The position numbers were made by a program, and so were the translations under genes. A stretch of 64,000 bases of DNA from an uncultured Hyphomicrobiales bacterium (GTDB lineage Bacteria > Bacteroidota > Ignavibacteria > Kapaibacteriales > UBA2268): assembly GCA_964454445.1 (NCBI GenBank), contig CAYVTD010000008.1, forward strand, positions 3,517 to 67,516. The letters are read 5' to 3'. Below, piece after piece: positions 28,912 to 59,965 of the stretch (positions are counted from its first letter, which is position 1; each line of letters starts with the position of its first letter). Below the pieces are notes generated by a model that saw only the letters and a list, made by a program, of their open reading frames with translations, was not told where the DNA came from and did not search any database.

Positions 28912-29259
28912 TTATTTCAACGTTATTTTTGTTTTCTATTTGTTTAGCTATTATAAAAATAGTTAATTTACAATTATTTGCCAAATATCGCTACTTGAAA
29001 AATCTCTTATTCTCCAAAAATCTTCTTCCAAAATCCATATCGCCTTTCTTTTACCAAGTAAATATATTCTTAATAATTTACAACATAATTTACAGAAATA
29101 TTTTTTCCCAATATTTATCCTTTTAAAAGCCAAATTCTGAGGAATATTTTTGATTTTATTGCTAATAATTCAGTAATTTTATATTTGTTATTACTAATTA
29201 TTTTTAATATAAAAGTTTTTGTTTTTTTCAATTGTAATATTTTTATAAGGAGTTCATTT

Positions 29260-31254
29260 ATGTACCGTATGTTTACTACTTTCATTGCTGTTTTGTCTTT
29301 GGTTTCCTTAATGTTTACACCATTTAAACTATCAGCGGGCAACGAAATGCTTCCTGCACCAAAGAATATCAAATCAGCCTTCTCTGCCAAATCCAATACC
29401 CAAGTTATTACATCACATTTTACGGAAAAAGCTTCCGACAAATTGTTATCTAATAACACTTATTATTTCGAAGATTTCAACAAACCAACTTCTCCATCAG
29501 ATATAACCACGTATGATATCGATGGACTCAAGCCTGTCTATAATAATTGGAATGATGCGCCTTGGGTTCTCTATCTTATGGATGAAGCAACAAAAGATTA
29601 TGATATGATTAGCACATCTTATTATAATCCTGCTGGACAAGCAGATGATTGGCTTATTACACCAAAAATCACCATCGGTGAAGACGCTTATTTATCTTGG
29701 GAAGCTAATTCCTGGTATCCTGGAAGACAAGATGGATATGAAGTTAGAGTTTCCACTACTGGGGCAGATGTCGCTGATTTCGACAAAGTACTTTTCTCCA
29801 CCTCAGCCGAAAATGTTGATCCTACCCTAAGATTTGTTGATCTTTCAGCTGCAGGCATAAAGGATCAAGATATTTATATTGCTTTCAGGAATAATTCTTA
29901 CGACAAATATGTCCTCTCTATTGACAATATTGCCGTTTACAAACCGGACACTTATGATGTTCAAATGCTCAGCATTACACTTCCTAAATATATGCCTGTT
30001 CCAGGATCGCCTTATACTATCAACGGCACTTTCCGCAATATGGGAACAGAAACAATTACCAACTTTACATTATTATATACCGATAACGGCGGCGAGCCTG
30101 TTGAATGTCAAATTACTGATGTTAATATTCCATTACATACAACTTTTGATTTTTCACATTCTATAGATTGGACTACTGACCAGGCCGGAGAGCACAATAT
30201 CAAGGTATGGGTATCAAAGATTAACGGTAATAACGACCAGTTCCCCGGAAACGATGCTTTGTCGGGTGTTGTGCTTGCTTATGATGTAGAAAAGACCTTT
30301 AAACGCTATCCTATGATTGAATGCTTTACTTCTGCTACTTGTCCCCCATGCAATCCTGGTAATGTCGTCGTGGATAATATTTTAAAAAAGCACCCGGGAG
30401 ATTACGTCATTGCAAAATACCAAATGAATTGGCCCGGTAATGGCGATATATACTTCAACACAGATGGGAATATACGCAGAAACTATTATGCAATAGAAGG
30501 CGTTCCTACTATGTTTGTTGATGGGATGCTTGGCATCAATTCCAATGCATTTACGGATCAAATGTTCCTTGATGCTCAATCTTCTCCAGCTTTTTTGAAA
30601 TTGGAAGCCAATTATTCAGTTACAGACAAAACTGTTAATATCAATGCCAGCATTTTGTCTAAGATTGCTATTAATAAAAATGATATGGTTCTCCATTGTG
30701 CTATCTTGGAAGGCACTACTTATAAAAACGTTGCAACAAATGGAGAGACCGAATTTCACTATGTTGAAAAAGCTATGGTTCCTTCAGGAGCAGGCACACC
30801 CATAAAACCATTGGCTGCAGACGAAAAACAAGAGTTCAGCTTGACATACATATTCCCTGAAAACAATACTGTTGAAGAATTTGATGACTTATTTGTTGCT
30901 GTATTTCTACAGAATCGCACTACAAAAGAAGTATATAACGCAACATTTGCCGTCAAAGAGGCAGCAGGTGTTTATGATAAAAATAGCAGTGGAAGCGGTA
31001 TTGTCCGCGTTTTCCCAAATCCAGCCACACAAATGTTGAACTTGGATTATCTTGTAAACACTTCGTCTACTAATGTTAAGTTAATGGTTTATAATTTGAA
31101 CGGCGAATTAGTTCTCGAGAATAACTTGGGCGCAAAATCGGAAGGTATTTATTCGCAACCTGTAAACATTTCCAAACTCACTTCAGGCGATTATTTACTT
31201 GAATTGCACATCGACGCAGAAACATTTATAAATAAATTATCTGTAGTTAGATAA
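29260..31254 (+). CDS. T9SS-secreted protein: cleaved-adhesin-like + Ig/CARDB-like + Omp28-like (thioredoxin-fold) domains + CTD
   Basis: ADDWLITP, YIAFRN, IDNI; ECFTSATCPPC; GVPTMFVDG; CTD VFPNPA...VYNLNGELV...GDYLL...KLSVVR. Confidence 0.85.
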   Translation: MYRMFTTFIAVLSLVSLMFTPFKLSAGNEMLPAPKNIKSAFSAKSNTQVITSHFTEKASDKLLSNNTYYFEDFNKPTSPSDITTYDIDGLKPVYNNWNDAPWVLYLMDEATKDYDMISTSYYNPAGQADDWLITPKITIGEDAYLSWEANSWYPGRQDGYEVRVSTTGADVADFDKVLFSTSAENVDPTLRFVDLSAAGIKDQDIYIAFRNNSYDKYVLSIDNIAVYKPDTYDVQMLSITLPKYMPVPGSPYTINGTFRNMGTETITNFTLLYTDNGGEPVECQITDVNIPLHTTFDFSHSIDWTTDQAGEHNIKVWVSKINGNNDQFPGNDALSGVVLAYDVEKTFKRYPMIECFTSATCPPCNPGNVVVDNILKKHPGDYVIAKYQMNWPGNGDIYFNTDGNIRRNYYAIEGVPTMFVDGMLGINSNAFTDQMFLDAQSSPAFLKLEANYSVTDKTVNINASILSKIAINKNDMVLHCAILEGTTYKNVATNGETEFHYVEKAMVPSGAGTPIKPLAADEKQEFSLTYIFPENNTVEEFDDLFVAVFLQNRTTKEVYNATFAVKEAAGVYDKNSSGSGIVRVFPNPATQMLNLDYLVNTSSTNVKLMVYNLNGELVLENNLGAKSEGIYSQPVNISKLTSGDYLLELHIDAETFINKLSVVR

Positions 31255-31378: not shown

Positions 31379-31978
31379 TTATTGAAAATCAAAAGTAATT
31401 TGGTTTAATATCATTTGAATTCTTTTTTCTGAAATTGTTTTATAATCCTCATTGATTTCGTAACCAATAAAACTCCTATTAGATTTCAAAGCGGAGATAG
31501 CTGTCGTTCCACTTCCAAGAAATGGGTCGAGAATAATATCATTTTTAAAAGAATATAATTGAATTAATCGATACGGTAATTCTTCAGGAAAAGGAGCTGG
31601 ATGGTTTACTTTCTTTGCTGATTCGGGATTCATTGTCCAAATGGATTTTGTCCATTCCATAAATTGTTCTTTTGTAATTGTATTTTCTTTGCCTTTAGCT
31701 TTTCTTTGATAATCACCTTTGGAAAAGATTAATATATATTCGTGTACATCCCTCAAAACAGGATTAGAAGCTGATTGCCAACTACCCCATGCCATGGATA
31801 CACCTGCACCCGCTCCCTTATTCCAAATAATTTCTCCTCTCATATTATAACCAATATCTAACATAATCTGAGAAACATAATCACTTAGAGGTATATAAGG
31901 TTTTCTACCTACGTTAGCAATATTAATACAAGCTCTGCCACCGGTAACAAGAACACGATATGTTTCATTGACGACAAA
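31379..31978 (-). pseudogene. Beta-class N4-C/N6-A DNA methyltransferase, C-terminal part only
   Basis: Frame extends upstream of the track ORF: ETYRVLVTGGRACINIAN...GEIIWNK...HEYILIFSK...HPAPFPEEL...ILDPFLGSGTT...IGYEI. In-frame TAA at 31981-31979; catalytic (S/D)PPY motif and start codon absent. Confidence 0.85.
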
Positions 31979-31995
31979 TTAGAACTAATTTGATC

Positions 31996-32844
31996 CTAAA
32001 AATGAACATATTTATAAAATTTTGAAACATTTTTTGACAAAACAGCTTGATTAACAAGGAATTCCTTTTTATTGAAATATACTTTTGTAAGCCAGCCATT
32101 ATCAAATTTTTCTTCAACATTAGCAAATGTAAATTGTTTATGACAATTTGCACAAACCATTAAAATATTTTTAGGATGGTTGCCTATTTTAGGATCGATA
32201 TGATGTAATTCAAAATATGGTCTATTATCTTGCTTTAAAAACCAGAAGTCACAAACTTGACAGTGTCCTTTATAAATATTATTAAATAAAATCCTTAAAT
32301 TAGCAGGTACTATTTCTTTTGCAGTTACCTGATTTTTTATTACTTGTTTTATTTCTATGTAATCAATATTTGATAATCTAAATAATTCATTCGAGGAAGC
32401 TTTTTCGATTTCAATTTGGTTTAAATCGGCCAATTGATTAATATTTATGATAGCATTACCTTCATCCTCGGTTTTATCAAATTCCTCTTCGATAGATTGA
32501 TTTCGGTTAATATAAAGTGTTTCTGGTATTAATTTGTAAATTAAGTTCTGTTTATCAATAGATTGGATAACAATTTCATCATCGACTTGTAGGTTATTAT
32601 TCCGATACCATTCTGATAAGCCATAAATTCTTGCTTCTCTATTCTTTTCAGAAATAATAAACTTTTTTGTTTGTAAAATTGTTAAATTATCAAAGTAAAC
32701 ATTGATATCACAGGTTTTATCTGGGAATAAATTTATTAAAGAAGTGGGTATTGCCAACAAACCATAATTTAACCTGCTTTGAGTCATTTTAATTGTATGG
32801 TAATTAAAGTTTATTGAACTGTTTAGAGTTAGTATATTATTCAT
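31996..32844 (-). CDS. HNH endonuclease with N-terminal B3/EcoRII-N-like DNA-binding pseudobarrel
   Basis: C-terminal CQVC...FELHHID...NILMVCANCH. N-terminal TIKMTQSRLNYGLLAIP..LFP..INVYFD..EARIYGLSEWYRNNNLQVDDEIVI. Confidence 0.75.
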   Translation of the reverse strand: MNNILTLNSSINFNYHTIKMTQSRLNYGLLAIPTSLINLFPDKTCDINVYFDNLTILQTKKFIISEKNREARIYGLSEWYRNNNLQVDDEIVIQSIDKQNLIYKLIPETLYINRNQSIEEEFDKTEDEGNAIININQLADLNQIEIEKASSNELFRLSNIDYIEIKQVIKNQVTAKEIVPANLRILFNNIYKGHCQVCDFWFLKQDNRPYFELHHIDPKIGNHPKNILMVCANCHKQFTFANVEEKFDNGWLTKVYFNKKEFLVNQAVLSKNVSKFYKYVHF

Positions 32845-32846
32845 CG

Positions 32847-33053
32847 TTAAAATCCGAAATCTTTACCAATTCCCACCGATTTATTACACTCAGGACAGAA
32901 TACTTCACTATTTGGGCTGTTCGTTAATGAATGATGAGCAATACATTCCCATTTGTCATCATTCCATCTCCATTGTTCTGTCATATTCGCTGAAAAATTT
33001 ATTGTGGATAATTCAAATCCACAATTCGGACATTTTTTAAATTTATTTTTCAT
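32847..33053 (-). CDS. Small zinc-ribbon protein
   Basis: CPNC...CPEC pairs, 68 aa; spaced 1-2 nt from both neighbours. Confidence 0.65.
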   Translation of the reverse strand: MKNKFKKCPNCGFELSTINFSANMTEQWRWNDDKWECIAHHSLTNSPNSEVFCPECNKSVGIGKDFGF

Positions 33054-33054
33054 A

Positions 33055-33624
33055 TTAATTCTGAAATAGAATGAAAAAAAATCTTTGATTTACTAATGTT
33101 TTTAATGCTGAAGCAGCCATTTCTGCACCTCTGGGATTTGTTCCTGCTTTTGGTAATTTAATATACTCATCTTTACCAATTTCATTAAATACTTCAATTT
33201 GAACTTCTTTAGGGATATAATAAAACCCTCCGCCGTTATTCCAATTAATTTGTACAAAAATCATATCACAGCCTGGAATATATGTTTCTCTAAATCTCAA
33301 AGCACTGTCAGCATCGACTGTCCAAATTAACTTTACACCTGAAAAACTTGTTCCAGTAATTGTTTTAATTGAAATAGGATTACTAAATACTTTAACATCA
33401 ACCTCAGATTCAGTTATTGGGATTTCGGTTTCAACATTATTTTCACCAAATTTATAAATCATCAATGCCACTAAAATTCTTTCTCTTAAACTACCTACTT
33501 CCATACCAACTTTTCCTGCTCTTGAGCTTTCCAATTCTGCAAAATGAAATAATTTCGGTAGTTTATTTTGAATCTTTCTAATCATCTGTTTGTCTTCAAA
33601 AATACTTTTAATTCTATTATCCAT
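33055..33624 (-). CDS. ThaI-family type II restriction endonuclease, probably C-terminally truncated
   Basis: KLPKLFHFAELESSRAGKVGMEVGSLRERILVALMIYKFG..VDVKVFSNPISIKT (PD-ExK-like core), VKLIWTVD, LPKAGTNPRG. Ends about 20 aa after NPRG in a poly-Phe run. Confidence 0.75.
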   Translation of the reverse strand: MDNRIKSIFEDKQMIRKIQNKLPKLFHFAELESSRAGKVGMEVGSLRERILVALMIYKFGENNVETEIPITESEVDVKVFSNPISIKTITGTSFSGVKLIWTVDADSALRFRETYIPGCDMIFVQINWNNGGGFYYIPKEVQIEVFNEIGKDEYIKLPKAGTNPRGAEMAASALKTLVNQRFFFILFQN

Positions 33625-33791: not shown

Positions 33792-34943
33792 CTACTTAAA
33801 GAATTTTGAATAGATGGAATGCCCGTAATAAGAAAAGTTTTCGAAATATCCGGTAAACCATTGAAAAAGAACGATTCCTCGCTCTTGGGAAGCGGTAATA
33901 TCTTCATATCTTTCAATGCCGCCTGTGCGAATAACGTTAAATTCCCTATTTGGCGGGTAATGCTTTAAGTATTCAGCGGCAAAACTGCTCAAATCAAAAG
34001 ATTTTTGCTTTAGAGGAGCGCCGCTTATTCCTCCGCCAAAGGTTTCAACAAAGTAATCGAAGACTCTATGCTCACTTTTGTCTATCATTGTCCTGCAAGC
34101 ATTATAATCGGTCGAAGTATTGCCGAGATTGACTCCGTCGTAATTCATAGCAAGCATAATATCAAGCAAAGCAACAAGGGTTTTCCGGTCGATATCCGTC
34201 GATAATTTCAAAATAACAGGCAGATTACGCCTCCTGTTTTTCAAAAACTTGTCGTTAATATGCTCTAATCTCCGCATTAAACTAATATCGATTGATTTTG
34301 AAAGGATTTCTTCGCCTGCATCTAATTCTTTTTCAGAAATGGAGGTGTTATGAGTTACGTTTGGACAGCTTTCATTAATCTCGATGAAATCGACACCAGC
34401 TTTATCAAACATCTTTAATCCTTCGATAAGTCCTTGCATTGCCAGACTTTCCTCTTGGTTGGGCGAGGCGGCCAAGCTGATGCCAATTGGACAACCACGC
34501 TTTTTTGAGAGCATAGACAATCGTTTAGCAACAATTTCGCAGCCTTCGTTTGGCAACCCCATCCAATTCGAAGCAGCATGCGATTTCGGATAGGCAGCAA
34601 AGGGATGCACGATACCTTCTTTTTTGTTGCCTTGTCTCGGGATAGGCGTGCTTGTACCTGCGAGAAATGCGCCAGCAGATTGAGCGGCACATAGTTCGTA
34701 ACCTTTGCCATTTTTAAACATTCCGGCAGCATTAAACAATGGGCAGTTAAACTCGATATCCCAAAGTTTTATTTTCAAATTTTCTGGAAGGGAAATCGAA
34801 CGGGAAGGTGTTTCATTAATAAACTTTTCGAGGAATGTCTTTCTACCTTTTGTAAAAAAAGATACTGCTTTTTTAGCAGGTAAAAGATTAATCTTTGGTC
34901 TTAAGATTTTTTCATATCTGGAAAAGTATTCTACTAATGACAT
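33792..34943 (-). CDS. pyrD: Dihydroorotate dehydrogenase (class 2-like)
   Basis: NAAGMFKNG, PRQGN, NWMGLPNEG, EINESCPN, GNT, GGISGAPL, TGG. Confidence 0.88.
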   Translation of the reverse strand: MSLVEYFSRYEKILRPKINLLPAKKAVSFFTKGRKTFLEKFINETPSRSISLPENLKIKLWDIEFNCPLFNAAGMFKNGKGYELCAAQSAGAFLAGTSTPIPRQGNKKEGIVHPFAAYPKSHAASNWMGLPNEGCEIVAKRLSMLSKKRGCPIGISLAASPNQEESLAMQGLIEGLKMFDKAGVDFIEINESCPNVTHNTSISEKELDAGEEILSKSIDISLMRRLEHINDKFLKNRRRNLPVILKLSTDIDRKTLVALLDIMLAMNYDGVNLGNTSTDYNACRTMIDKSEHRVFDYFVETFGGGISGAPLKQKSFDLSSFAAEYLKHYPPNREFNVIRTGGIERYEDITASQERGIVLFQWFTGYFENFSYYGHSIYSKFFK

Positions 34944-59527: not shown

Positions 59528-59965
59528 TTATCCATCGGATTGCTTGCTGCAATTTTGACGAATCAAATGTACGTCTTCAAATGTTTTTTTGATATCTAAT
59601 TGCTTATATTGAAGATACTTCCCATCTGGTTTGGCTATTTTATGTTCTTTATAATGAATATCAGTTTTTCTTGAGTATTTGCCTTTATTCCTAATAAAAC
59701 CTTTTGTCCCAAAATACACATCACCAATGTTCAAATAGAATGATCCCGCTTTATGCAAAACCCTTTTAAACTCAGTAATGTAAATCAATAAGTTGTTTAT
59801 ATAATCATAAGGATTGTCTTCACGACCGACAGTCTCATTGCCATATAGACGACACAAGAAATAAGGAGGTGATGTAATAATCAAATTAATTGAACCATCT
59901 GGAATCTCCTTGATTAGATCCAAGGTATCGCCACGTGTTACTTTATTTATATACTTTTCGATCAT
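59528..59965 (-). pseudogene. Beta-class DNA methyltransferase, N-terminal part only
   Basis: GDTLDLIKEIPDGSINLIITSPPYF, EFKRVL, FYLNIGDVY. Homology-like sequence stops after YKQL; no FxGxG SAM-binding motif. Confidence 0.8.

Follow-up and report, generated by a model that had tools for sequence, protein, structure and literature searches.

The 64,000-nucleotide stretch of DNA analyzed here, in the following called the window (contig CAYVTD010000008.1, positions 3,517 to 67,516 of the forward strand, assembly GCA_964454445.1), comes from an uncultured bacterium deposited as Hyphomicrobiales and placed by GTDB in the Kapaibacteriales (Bacteroidota, Ignavibacteria, UBA2268). It carries a Type II restriction-modification (R-M) operon of the ThaI type (CGCG, N4-methylcytosine), in which the central 405 bp were swapped for a cassette encoding a small zinc-ribbon protein and an HNH nuclease. 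The swap removed the 3′ end of the restriction endonuclease (REase) gene together with the 5′ part of the methyltransferase (MTase) gene. On balance, the cassette is probably a mobile, homing-like element that is specialized on such operons.

Four co-oriented open reading frames (ORFs) are located on the minus strand between a DHOD-like gene and a cargo gene of the type IX secretion system (T9SS). An earlier note on this DNA, made from the sequence alone, had described the order REase, zinc ribbon, HNH and MTase, and all four ORFs are present in the ORF list where it had placed them. The features are given below, with the remnants of the REase and MTase genes abbreviated as ThaI′ and MT′; HMM stands for the hidden Markov models described further below, and L207-L210 are contigs with a cassette-free allele of the same locus.

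31967..33085, minus strand: cassette, 1,119 bp, replacing 405 bp of the cassette-free allele (alignment to L207-L210)
33624..33055, minus strand: ThaI-type REase ORF, 189 amino acids (Pfam ThaI PF15514, E 1.5e-81)
33086..33624, minus strand: ThaI-type REase remnant (ThaI′), codons 1-180 of 210
33055..33085, minus strand: foreign tail of the REase ORF, QRFFFILFQN and stop (9 codons plus stop), the 5′ edge of the cassette
32847..33053, minus strand: zinc-ribbon protein with CxxC...CxxC, 68 amino acids, small partner of the nuclease
31996..32844, minus strand: HNH nuclease, 282 amino acids (PF01844, 24 bits, cut-off 21.4)
32524-32844, minus strand: predicted B3-like DNA-binding pseudobarrel of the HNH protein, amino acids 1-107, followed by a helical linker
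32125-32277, minus strand: C-terminal zinc-bound HNH domain, amino acids ~190-240
32350..32352, minus strand: HNH codon 165; the present assembly has ATA (Ile)
31379..31966, minus strand: M.ThaI-type N4-MTase remnant (MT′), HMM positions 105-294 of 296, plus stop
31490..33610, minus strand: minimal imported tract; the 65 positions at which the R-M unit differs from the sister allele are all located here
33792-34943: DHOD-like gene, flank on the REase side of the four-ORF block
29185-31254: T9SS cargo gene, flank on the MTase side of the four-ORF block

The state of the locus without the cassette is preserved in a sister population. A protein search with the MTase remnant resulted in an intact MTase of 304 amino acids (P0356, 98 % identical), which is encoded on contigs L207-L210 from four samples. 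These contigs show the gene order Pta-lyase-Ptb-Buk-DHOD, ThaI, MTase and T9SS cargo gene, i.e., the cassette-free allele is located at the same chromosomal site as in the window. The window aligns to L207 with 98.8 % identity over 37500-33086 and with 98.6 % over 31966-27000, and between the aligned blocks it has 1,119 bp (33085-31967) where L207 has 405 bp. The breakpoints, for which the earlier note had proposed an alignment to intact loci, are thereby placed at 33086/33085 and 31967/31966, and no microhomology longer than 2-3 nt was found at these two junctions in comparison to L207. The replaced 405 bp comprise ThaI codons 181-210, the overlap of the two genes and MTase codons 1 to ~104 including the SPPY motif. 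The orthologous allele shows that a single event removed the REase C-terminus and the N-terminal part of the MTase and left the nuclease pair behind, as the earlier note had suggested; its view of an insertion of about 1.07 kb was right in that a foreign insert is present, but the insert measures 1,119 bp and 405 bp were replaced. In the sister allele the REase gene is a pseudogene (L207 5385-6016) with a deletion of 1 nt at codon 122 and with changes at the conserved residues A36V, R47G, E65V and D104G, and its MTase is intact and forms an orphan methylase where the window has the cassette. In a relative from the same genus (G001) synteny stops just after the DHOD gene, so this genome is uninformative as an empty site.

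The comparison with the sister allele also reveals how the cassette reached the window. The core genes overall differ by 0.35-1.0 % from L207 (DHOD 0.35 %, Buk 0.36 %, T9SS gene 0.92 %), and the intergenic regions of 167 nt beside the REase gene and of 124 nt beside the MTase gene show no differences, whereas ThaI′ differs at 31/539 (5.75 %) and MT′ at 34/588 positions (5.78 %). The proportion of differences at synonymous sites (pS) is 0.26 for MT′ and 0.14 for ThaI′, compared to 0.005-0.012 for DHOD, Buk and the T9SS gene. As relaxed constraint cannot yield a 20-50-fold excess of synonymous change, this shows that the unit of ThaI′, cassette and MT′ was imported by homologous recombination from a donor that is ~6 % diverged, with the truncated REase and MTase genes acting as arms. 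The final ~110 nt of the MTase gene are identical in the window and the sister allele; one crossover lies within this segment and the other within the first ~15 nt of the REase gene. The cassette is not newly inserted here; it arrived together with ~0.5 kb of diverged REase and MTase sequence per side. Moreover, the ratio of nonsynonymous to synonymous differences (pN/pS) of MT′ versus the intact sister MTase is only 0.02, showing that the MTase part of the donor was functional during nearly the whole of this divergence and that the truncation is recent on the divergence time scale. This fits with the observation that the two remnants in the window have no excess of nonsynonymous substitutions (dN) in comparison to intact homologues.

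That the short gene ends are truncations becomes clear from the family norm, as ~70 out of 80 genome loci with ThaI relatives encode a ThaI of exactly 210 amino acids, and an MTase of ~300 amino acids, of the family to which MT′ belongs, follows immediately or overlaps it. The HMMs for both proteins were built from ThaI-family genome loci (ThaI 210, MTase 296 positions). The window REase covers positions 1-173 of 203 of PF15514 and positions 1-181 of 210 of the ThaI HMM, and it aligns to residues 1-179 of the crystallized R.ThaI of Thermoplasma acidophilum (3NDH, E 6e-72). Its homology ends at residue 180-181 and the last 30 residues are gone, which accounts for the abrupt end in a foreign tail that the earlier note had remarked on. 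The catalytic residues E48, D76 and K87 are kept (E54/D82/K93 in the numbering of 3NDH and of the corresponding paper). The MTase remnant, already noted as lacking a start and the PPY motif, matches positions 70-221 of 221 of PF01555, retains the DPFLGSGTT motif for S-adenosylmethionine (AdoMet) and has lost ~104 N-terminal residues, i.e., the N-terminal extension and motif IV SPPY (HMM positions 80-83), which is present in the replaced segment of the sister allele. The cognate enzyme of R.ThaI is an N4-methyltransferase, and the dimer contacts of R.ThaI are largely made by domain-swapped C-terminal helices (PMC3025569). Since these dimerization helices are lost from ThaI′ and SPPY is absent from MT′, both proteins are most likely dead, and neither is expected to work as in the classical ThaI system. 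In the own genome, which is 93 % complete, no second copy of ThaI, the zinc-ribbon protein, the HNH nuclease or a ThaI-type MTase was found, the best other ThaI-type MTase scoring 34 bits compared to 339 bits for the window remnant; the claim of the earlier note that both enzymes were disabled is well supported in this respect. The genome holds 2,886 CGCG sites. The CGCG specificity of the window system is assumed by homology. For CGCG the ratio of observed to expected counts (O/E) is 0.94 under a trinucleotide Markov model, but ~0.54 versus dinucleotide shuffles of the window.

The probability that the arrangement is an assembly or binning artefact, or that it represents a naturally short ThaI with its methylase encoded elsewhere, is negligible, although the draft genome that contains the window is split into 84 contigs. 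Both had been named in the earlier note as outcomes that would speak against its interpretation. The length of 210 amino acids in the family and the lack of a ThaI-type MTase elsewhere in the genome argue against the short variant. At least 9 other contigs, assembled from eight additional samples or records, have the cassette allele. Both junctions are covered at 99.9-100 % identity by L194-L196 and L204 and one junction by each of L197, L198 and L205, and L206 reaches the REase remnant only. An artefact is thereby refuted as far as assemblies allow.

Within the block, the zinc-ribbon ORF starts 1 nt past the stop of the truncated REase ORF and ends 2 nt ahead of the HNH start. The frame of the MTase remnant is open from 31972 to 31379 with a first ATG at 31864 (161 amino acids), and stops in this frame at 31987-31985 and 31981-31979 lie 9-17 nt past the HNH stop, so that the 14 nt given in the earlier note are about right. 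A run of eight T residues (T8) at 33074-33081 is located within the foreign tail of the REase ORF; as judged from the sequence, with one T fewer ThaI(1-180) and the zinc-ribbon ORF would form a single continuous frame. The T8 run is also present in the other assemblies covering that stretch, which align there without gaps. At locus L153 a ThaI N-terminus of 44 amino acids is in frame with the zinc-ribbon ORF. The block is indeed more AT-rich than its surroundings, as had been supposed: its GC content ranges from 0.25 to 0.33 (cassette 0.268, ThaI′ 0.304, MT′ 0.327), compared to 0.37-0.45 in the flanks and 0.37 genome-wide. CGCG occurs freely in core genes, likewise as described before; the window has 75 sites, among them 100-103 and 211-214, and there are none within 31379-33624. 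A scan of the locus for promoters and terminators gave chance-level results with a consensus that does not fit this phylum.

The exchange is not confined to the window. The R and M HMMs were applied to 80 metagenome loci encoding HNH homologues, to some assembly loci and to the genome G017 from the same family, and the pair of zinc ribbon and HNH, which the earlier note had suggested to seek in other contexts, recurs between truncated REase and MTase genes. The zinc-ribbon gene mostly precedes the HNH gene, with 5′ fragments of ThaI upstream and 3′ fragments of the MTase downstream, and among the 42 distinct loci that include both flanks, 23 have at least one remnant. The ThaI fragments end at amino acids 43-51, 59-65, 95, 108, 130, 156, 168-173 and 181 (the window), and the MTase fragments start at HMM positions 41-45, 55-64, 71-72, 105 (the window), 132-136, 147-148, 185-198, 235 and 262-269. 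At any cassette locus surveyed, ThaI never extends past 181 and the MTase never starts before 41.

Furthermore, the same occupant is found in a second REase context. An ORF of 197 amino acids upstream of HNH (L087, L124, L154) is a truncated member of a family of 288 amino acids with 2,887 homologues, and in the clades with this REase context (288-aa-R clades) the 197-amino-acid ORF and an acidic ORF of 57 amino acids lie upstream of HNH. An intact 288-amino-acid member overlaps by 8 nt an MTase of 309-314 amino acids, which belongs to the M.ThaI family (HMM 532 bits). The 288-289-amino-acid family (L199 3001-3867, P0087-P0205) has no Pfam or PADLOC match and has a D...EVK motif; it is probably an undescribed REase family, which may share the recognition site of ThaI. 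The possibility that the 197-amino-acid ORF is a diverged ThaI was rejected, as hhalign gave a probability of 0.3 % and the two are unrelated. This shows that two unrelated REase families with one MTase family house an occupant of the same kind, and the 3′ end of the REase gene and the 5′ end of the MTase gene were lost each time.

In a tree of the C-terminal 140 amino acids of the MTases, the remnants that accompany cassettes are scattered over at least 7 positions between the MTases of intact R-M pairs. As an example, the flanks of the cassette locus L090 are 93-95 % identical to the intact loci L032/L057 right to the junctions, and 1,155 nt replace 724 nt, from ThaI codon 44 to MTase codon ~73. 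The right junction of L090 lies within a 9-nt microhomology, TTCATCTGA, which encodes F-I-stop of HNH and V-H-L-M of the MTase, explaining the recurrence of the M71-73 junction in several clades. HNH and MTase divergences, computed in tblastn-derived frames, disagree in several pairs: in L124/L133 the HNH proteins are 99-100 % identical with a synonymous divergence (dS) of 0.06 versus an MTase dS of 1.6 and with junctions at M72 and M132, and in L145/L138 the HNH dS is 0.23 versus an MTase dS of 1.3. L132/L143 show the opposite pattern, with flanks that are closer than the cassette. A single ancient insertion followed by slow decay is ruled out as the sole explanation by the scattered MTase remnants, by these mismatches between HNH and flank dS and by the pristine remnants in the window. 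A transposon-like model with fixed ends and anchored adjacent deletions was also rejected: there are no terminal repeats or duplications, and short proximal MTase pieces (HLMVTSPPY) stay beside HNH in loci with larger internal deletions. At the window cassette no flanking repeats were found beyond AT-rich chance matches, and no transposase domain was found with Pfam.

The occupied loci vary in further respects. L187 (G017:C33, 3194-4784) has ThaI 3-65, an unrelated ORF of 101 amino acids replacing the zinc ribbon, HNH and MTase 191-293; its HNH protein lacks three of the four zinc cysteines (CQLTDF, VVSPNIH), and P0084 has similar cysteine losses in the same two motifs. L203 (3001-4621) contains a truncated REase of the 288-amino-acid family (202 amino acids), an ORF of 55 amino acids and HNH between trpB and trpA and no methylase remnant. 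Changes of other kinds were seen at ThaI loci as well. In L067 (5001-6270) a ThaI homologue is cut at residue 171 and is followed by an R.HinP1I-like gene (PF11463) in the place of the methylase, so that ThaI was subject to another type of in-place exchange close to the position seen here. Intact ThaI R-M pairs in L002 (5618-6034), L018 and L041 carry an extra ORF between the REase and MTase genes without truncation (in L002 of 138 amino acids with a CPVCERPHH motif), showing that this boundary accepts other inserts.

The two cassette proteins form conserved families. The HNH family is small, as a search of 1.8 billion proteins gave 48 representatives at E <= 1e-30, and C195, C198, H214, H215, N226, C231, C234 and H235 are invariant in 32 sequences; the catalytic His/Asn/His and both CxxC zinc-ligand pairs are present in the window HNH. 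The AlphaFold2 (AF2) model of the nuclease (predicted local distance difference test, pLDDT, 92; predicted template modeling score, pTM, 0.87) has an N-terminal pseudobarrel, for which Foldseek returned plant B3 domains (FUS3, VAL1, TEM1), LlaJI.R1-N, BfiI-C and the UbaLAI B3 domain with a probability of ~1.0 and a target-normalized template modeling (TM) score of 0.5-0.72. No Pfam B3 match was obtained at E <= 0.1. The predicted fold resembles the recognition or effector domains of the B3-like restriction enzymes BfiI, EcoRII, NgoAVII, UbaLAI and LlaJI.R1; those enzymes, however, join B3 to PLD, PD-(D/E)XK or McrB-type modules, and no described fusion of B3 and HNH was found in the literature searched or in PADLOC. 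The nuclease would bind a defined DNA sequence via B3 and would cut via HNH, independent of a cognate methylase, unlike the B3-like restriction enzymes. The zinc-ribbon protein belongs to a conserved family of 41 sequences with invariant C8, C11, C53 and C56; its Pfam zinc-ribbon matches are only weak, and its AF2 model (pLDDT 79) is all-beta and has no match in the PDB in a fold search (E > 1). In a syntenic clade that has lost the MTase altogether, the ratio of nonsynonymous to synonymous substitution rates (ω) is 0.06-0.19 for HNH and 0.07-0.15 for the zinc ribbon at dS 0.5-2.5. This shows that purifying selection maintains both proteins in the absence of any MTase, which argues against the role of a classical REase.

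This bears on an explanation in which the REase gene was swapped, i.e., the B3-HNH protein would be a new REase that adopted the ThaI-type methylase as protection, and the window methylase decayed later. B3-like domains are typical of restriction enzymes, and HNH of the 288-aa-R clade is translationally coupled by TAATG or TGATG overlaps to an MTase that starts at an internal Met and contains SPPY, with an ω of ~0.06. Nevertheless, such a swap is quite improbable in view of the selection on HNH where the MTase is gone, of a window MTase that lacks SPPY in a genome with no other family member and yet 2,886 CGCG sites, and of the window truncation, which arrived with the cassette and not afterwards. 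An epigenetic conflict is very unlikely. Here, a modification-dependent (Type IV-like) HNH enzyme would attack DNA methylated in the ThaI manner and would settle only where the MTase was destroyed, in agreement with the MTase N-terminus missing at every cassette locus and with the precedent of PcaRCI and PcaRCII, an R-M system and a methylation-dependent HNH enzyme (PMC8989522). A weak PADLOC match of the nuclease to mREase_IV (E 0.001) points in the same direction, but is limited to the HNH motif, as are all its PADLOC matches. No known modified-base reader domain (SRA, EVE/YTH/ASCH and the like) was found on the nuclease, the N-domain being B3-like. In addition, host DNA that is already methylated would be cut upon arrival, and the coupled HNH-MTase operons of the 288-aa-R clade, in which an apparently selected MTase with SPPY is kept right after HNH, are difficult to reconcile with an enzyme that depends on methylation and targets this methylase.

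The recurrent remnants raise the question of whether they are functional themselves, R′ and M′ being working subunits of a four-gene system, M′ for DNA recognition or AdoMet sensing and R′ as a monomeric nuclease half. The 3,971 MTase-remnant codons in 30 loci contain few stops, mostly at junction edges, C-terminal MTase pieces from near Met142-149 recur in several HNH clades, and the window remnants lack an excess of dN. Moreover, in L145/L138/L148 the MTase remnant begins at the Tyr of SPPY (PMFSYNV instead of MVTSPPYNV) just after the HNH stop and shows an ω of 0.05-0.08 over ~220 codons at a dS above 1; either this methylase-like protein is functional without motif IV or its divergence is older than the repeated transfers. 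However, low ω values and open frames are also expected for remnants that were recently cut and moved, as shown by the pN/pS of 0.02 in the window. With remnant lengths ranging from 26 to ~250 codons, about half of the loci having none and some remnants containing stops or internal deletions, a co-opted composite of this kind is improbable.

A further alternative is passive replacement of the R/M junction by a nuclease module that benefits the host, e.g., one that acts in defence or abortive infection and is regulated or inhibited by the small protein. Such a module would have entered an R-M operon once and would since have spread solely by general recombination via the conserved arms in the REase and MTase genes, without initiation by its own nuclease. 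The import tract of the window requires ordinary recombination only and is explained equally well in this way. Purifying selection acts on both cassette genes in the syntenic clade without MTase, where they are inherited vertically, and the tightly coupled upstream small ORF varies by clade (zinc ribbon, 57-amino-acid acidic protein and others), recalling nuclease/immunity pairs. What remains unexplained by passive spread are at least 8 different junctions on the MTase side and two unrelated REase contexts with the loss of both inner ends, as well as flanks that match an intact lineage right to the junction; the PADLOC match, moreover, is limited to the HNH motif. Passive replacement is therefore regarded as rather unlikely.

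With the roles of a classical REase and of a methylation-dependent enzyme argued against, the cassette would encode either a rare-cutting enzyme of the homing type or a regulated module of nuclease and partner. A homing-like spread of the cassette is favored by its specific context, by the R/M junction being the sole segment absent from all occupied loci and by the signature of co-conversion in the window. The cassette nuclease would cut the cassette-free operon in the R/M junction region, the putative target comprising ThaI codons 182-210 and MTase HMM positions 1-40, the sole part missing at every cassette locus, and repair from a cassette-bearing copy would convert the cut site. R-M systems are usually viewed as addictive, selfish and hard to lose, as loss of the methylase while the nuclease persists results in cell death. 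By the removal of both inner gene ends together, such post-segregational killing would be avoided. A selfish element of the homing type is a possible mechanism, held with somewhat less than even confidence. More tentatively, the cassette might act as an R-M-specific gene drive, whose nuclease would recognize the conserved 5′ end of M.ThaI-family genes in cassette-free operons whatever the REase partner, the cassette being copied in by repair of the break, with R′ and M′ serving the next invasion as arms and with the double loss disarming the addictive R-M system without post-segregational killing.

Several observations weigh against a homing-like element. Classical homing is a clean insertion after which the host gene still works; here, host sequence is deleted, both host genes are most likely killed and the junctions differ. 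B3 domains usually read 5-6 bp only, a small site for a homing enzyme that cuts rarely. The putative target in the R/M junction was derived solely from the region that is always missing. Searches of phage, plasmid and IMG/VR sequences with the HNH protein gave HNH-motif matches only, so that no vector was seen by this route. No REase or MTase remnant is present at 19 of the 42 loci at the thresholds used, and the SPP-less remnants of L145/L138/L148 with their low ω could be functional parts and not arms. Finally, codon 165 of HNH is AGA (Arg) in six other assemblies of the locus and ATA (Ile) in the window, and Arg165 is invariant in 32/32 aligned HNH family members. The window copy may be an inactivated variant, or the Ile may be a consensus error; in the former case the window nuclease might be inactive.

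Two observations on neighboring and other genes may be added. The T9SS cargo gene (29260-31254) has 16 nonsynonymous and 2 synonymous differences from L207 (pN 0.010 > pS 0.005), which suggests that this surface protein is under diversifying selection between the two populations. At 59528-59965 (minus strand), between rny and folC, the window contains an N-terminal methylase fragment of 145 amino acids with ITSPPY and without the C-terminal half; the own genome has 14 PF01555 matches, many of them with internal stops, and it strongly avoids GGCC (O/E 0.13), CATG (0.36) and GATC (0.44).

In comparison to known systems, the cassette shares features with free-standing HNH homing genes such as the "hidden HNH" ShiLan in phage DNA methylase genes (PMC11855218), as an HNH gene is located inside or beside a DNA methylase gene. 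As for homing genes, alleles with and without the element exist at one site, flanks are co-converted and the phylogenies of element and flank disagree. Unlike ShiLan, the cassette was found in cellular chromosomes only and not in phages, and unlike homing genes it is predicted to recognize DNA by a B3-like domain and comes with a small partner that is encoded separately. A parallel to the competition between an R-M system and a nuclease is provided by Pectobacterium, where PcaRCI and the solitary HNH nuclease PcaRCII compete within the genome and one silences the other (PMC8989522). There, however, the R-M system methylates the promoter of the HNH gene and thereby silences it, whereas here the cassette physically replaces the R/M junction.

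As a summary, a second nuclease element strips the inner ends of both genes of an R-M system in one step, and this appears to have been repeated across one methylase family, two unrelated REase partners and several phyla. What is new is the family-wide, R-M-specific behavior of an uncharacterized B3-HNH cassette together with a clean pair of before and after states at one site. If the nuclease starts the conversion, the cassette would be a homing element that parasitizes defence systems, and it would represent a natural tool for the in-place exchange of immune genes; B3-HNH would then be a new enzyme whose natural target is defined. In the case of passive spread, truncated defence genes can still be landing pads for the exchange of cassettes.

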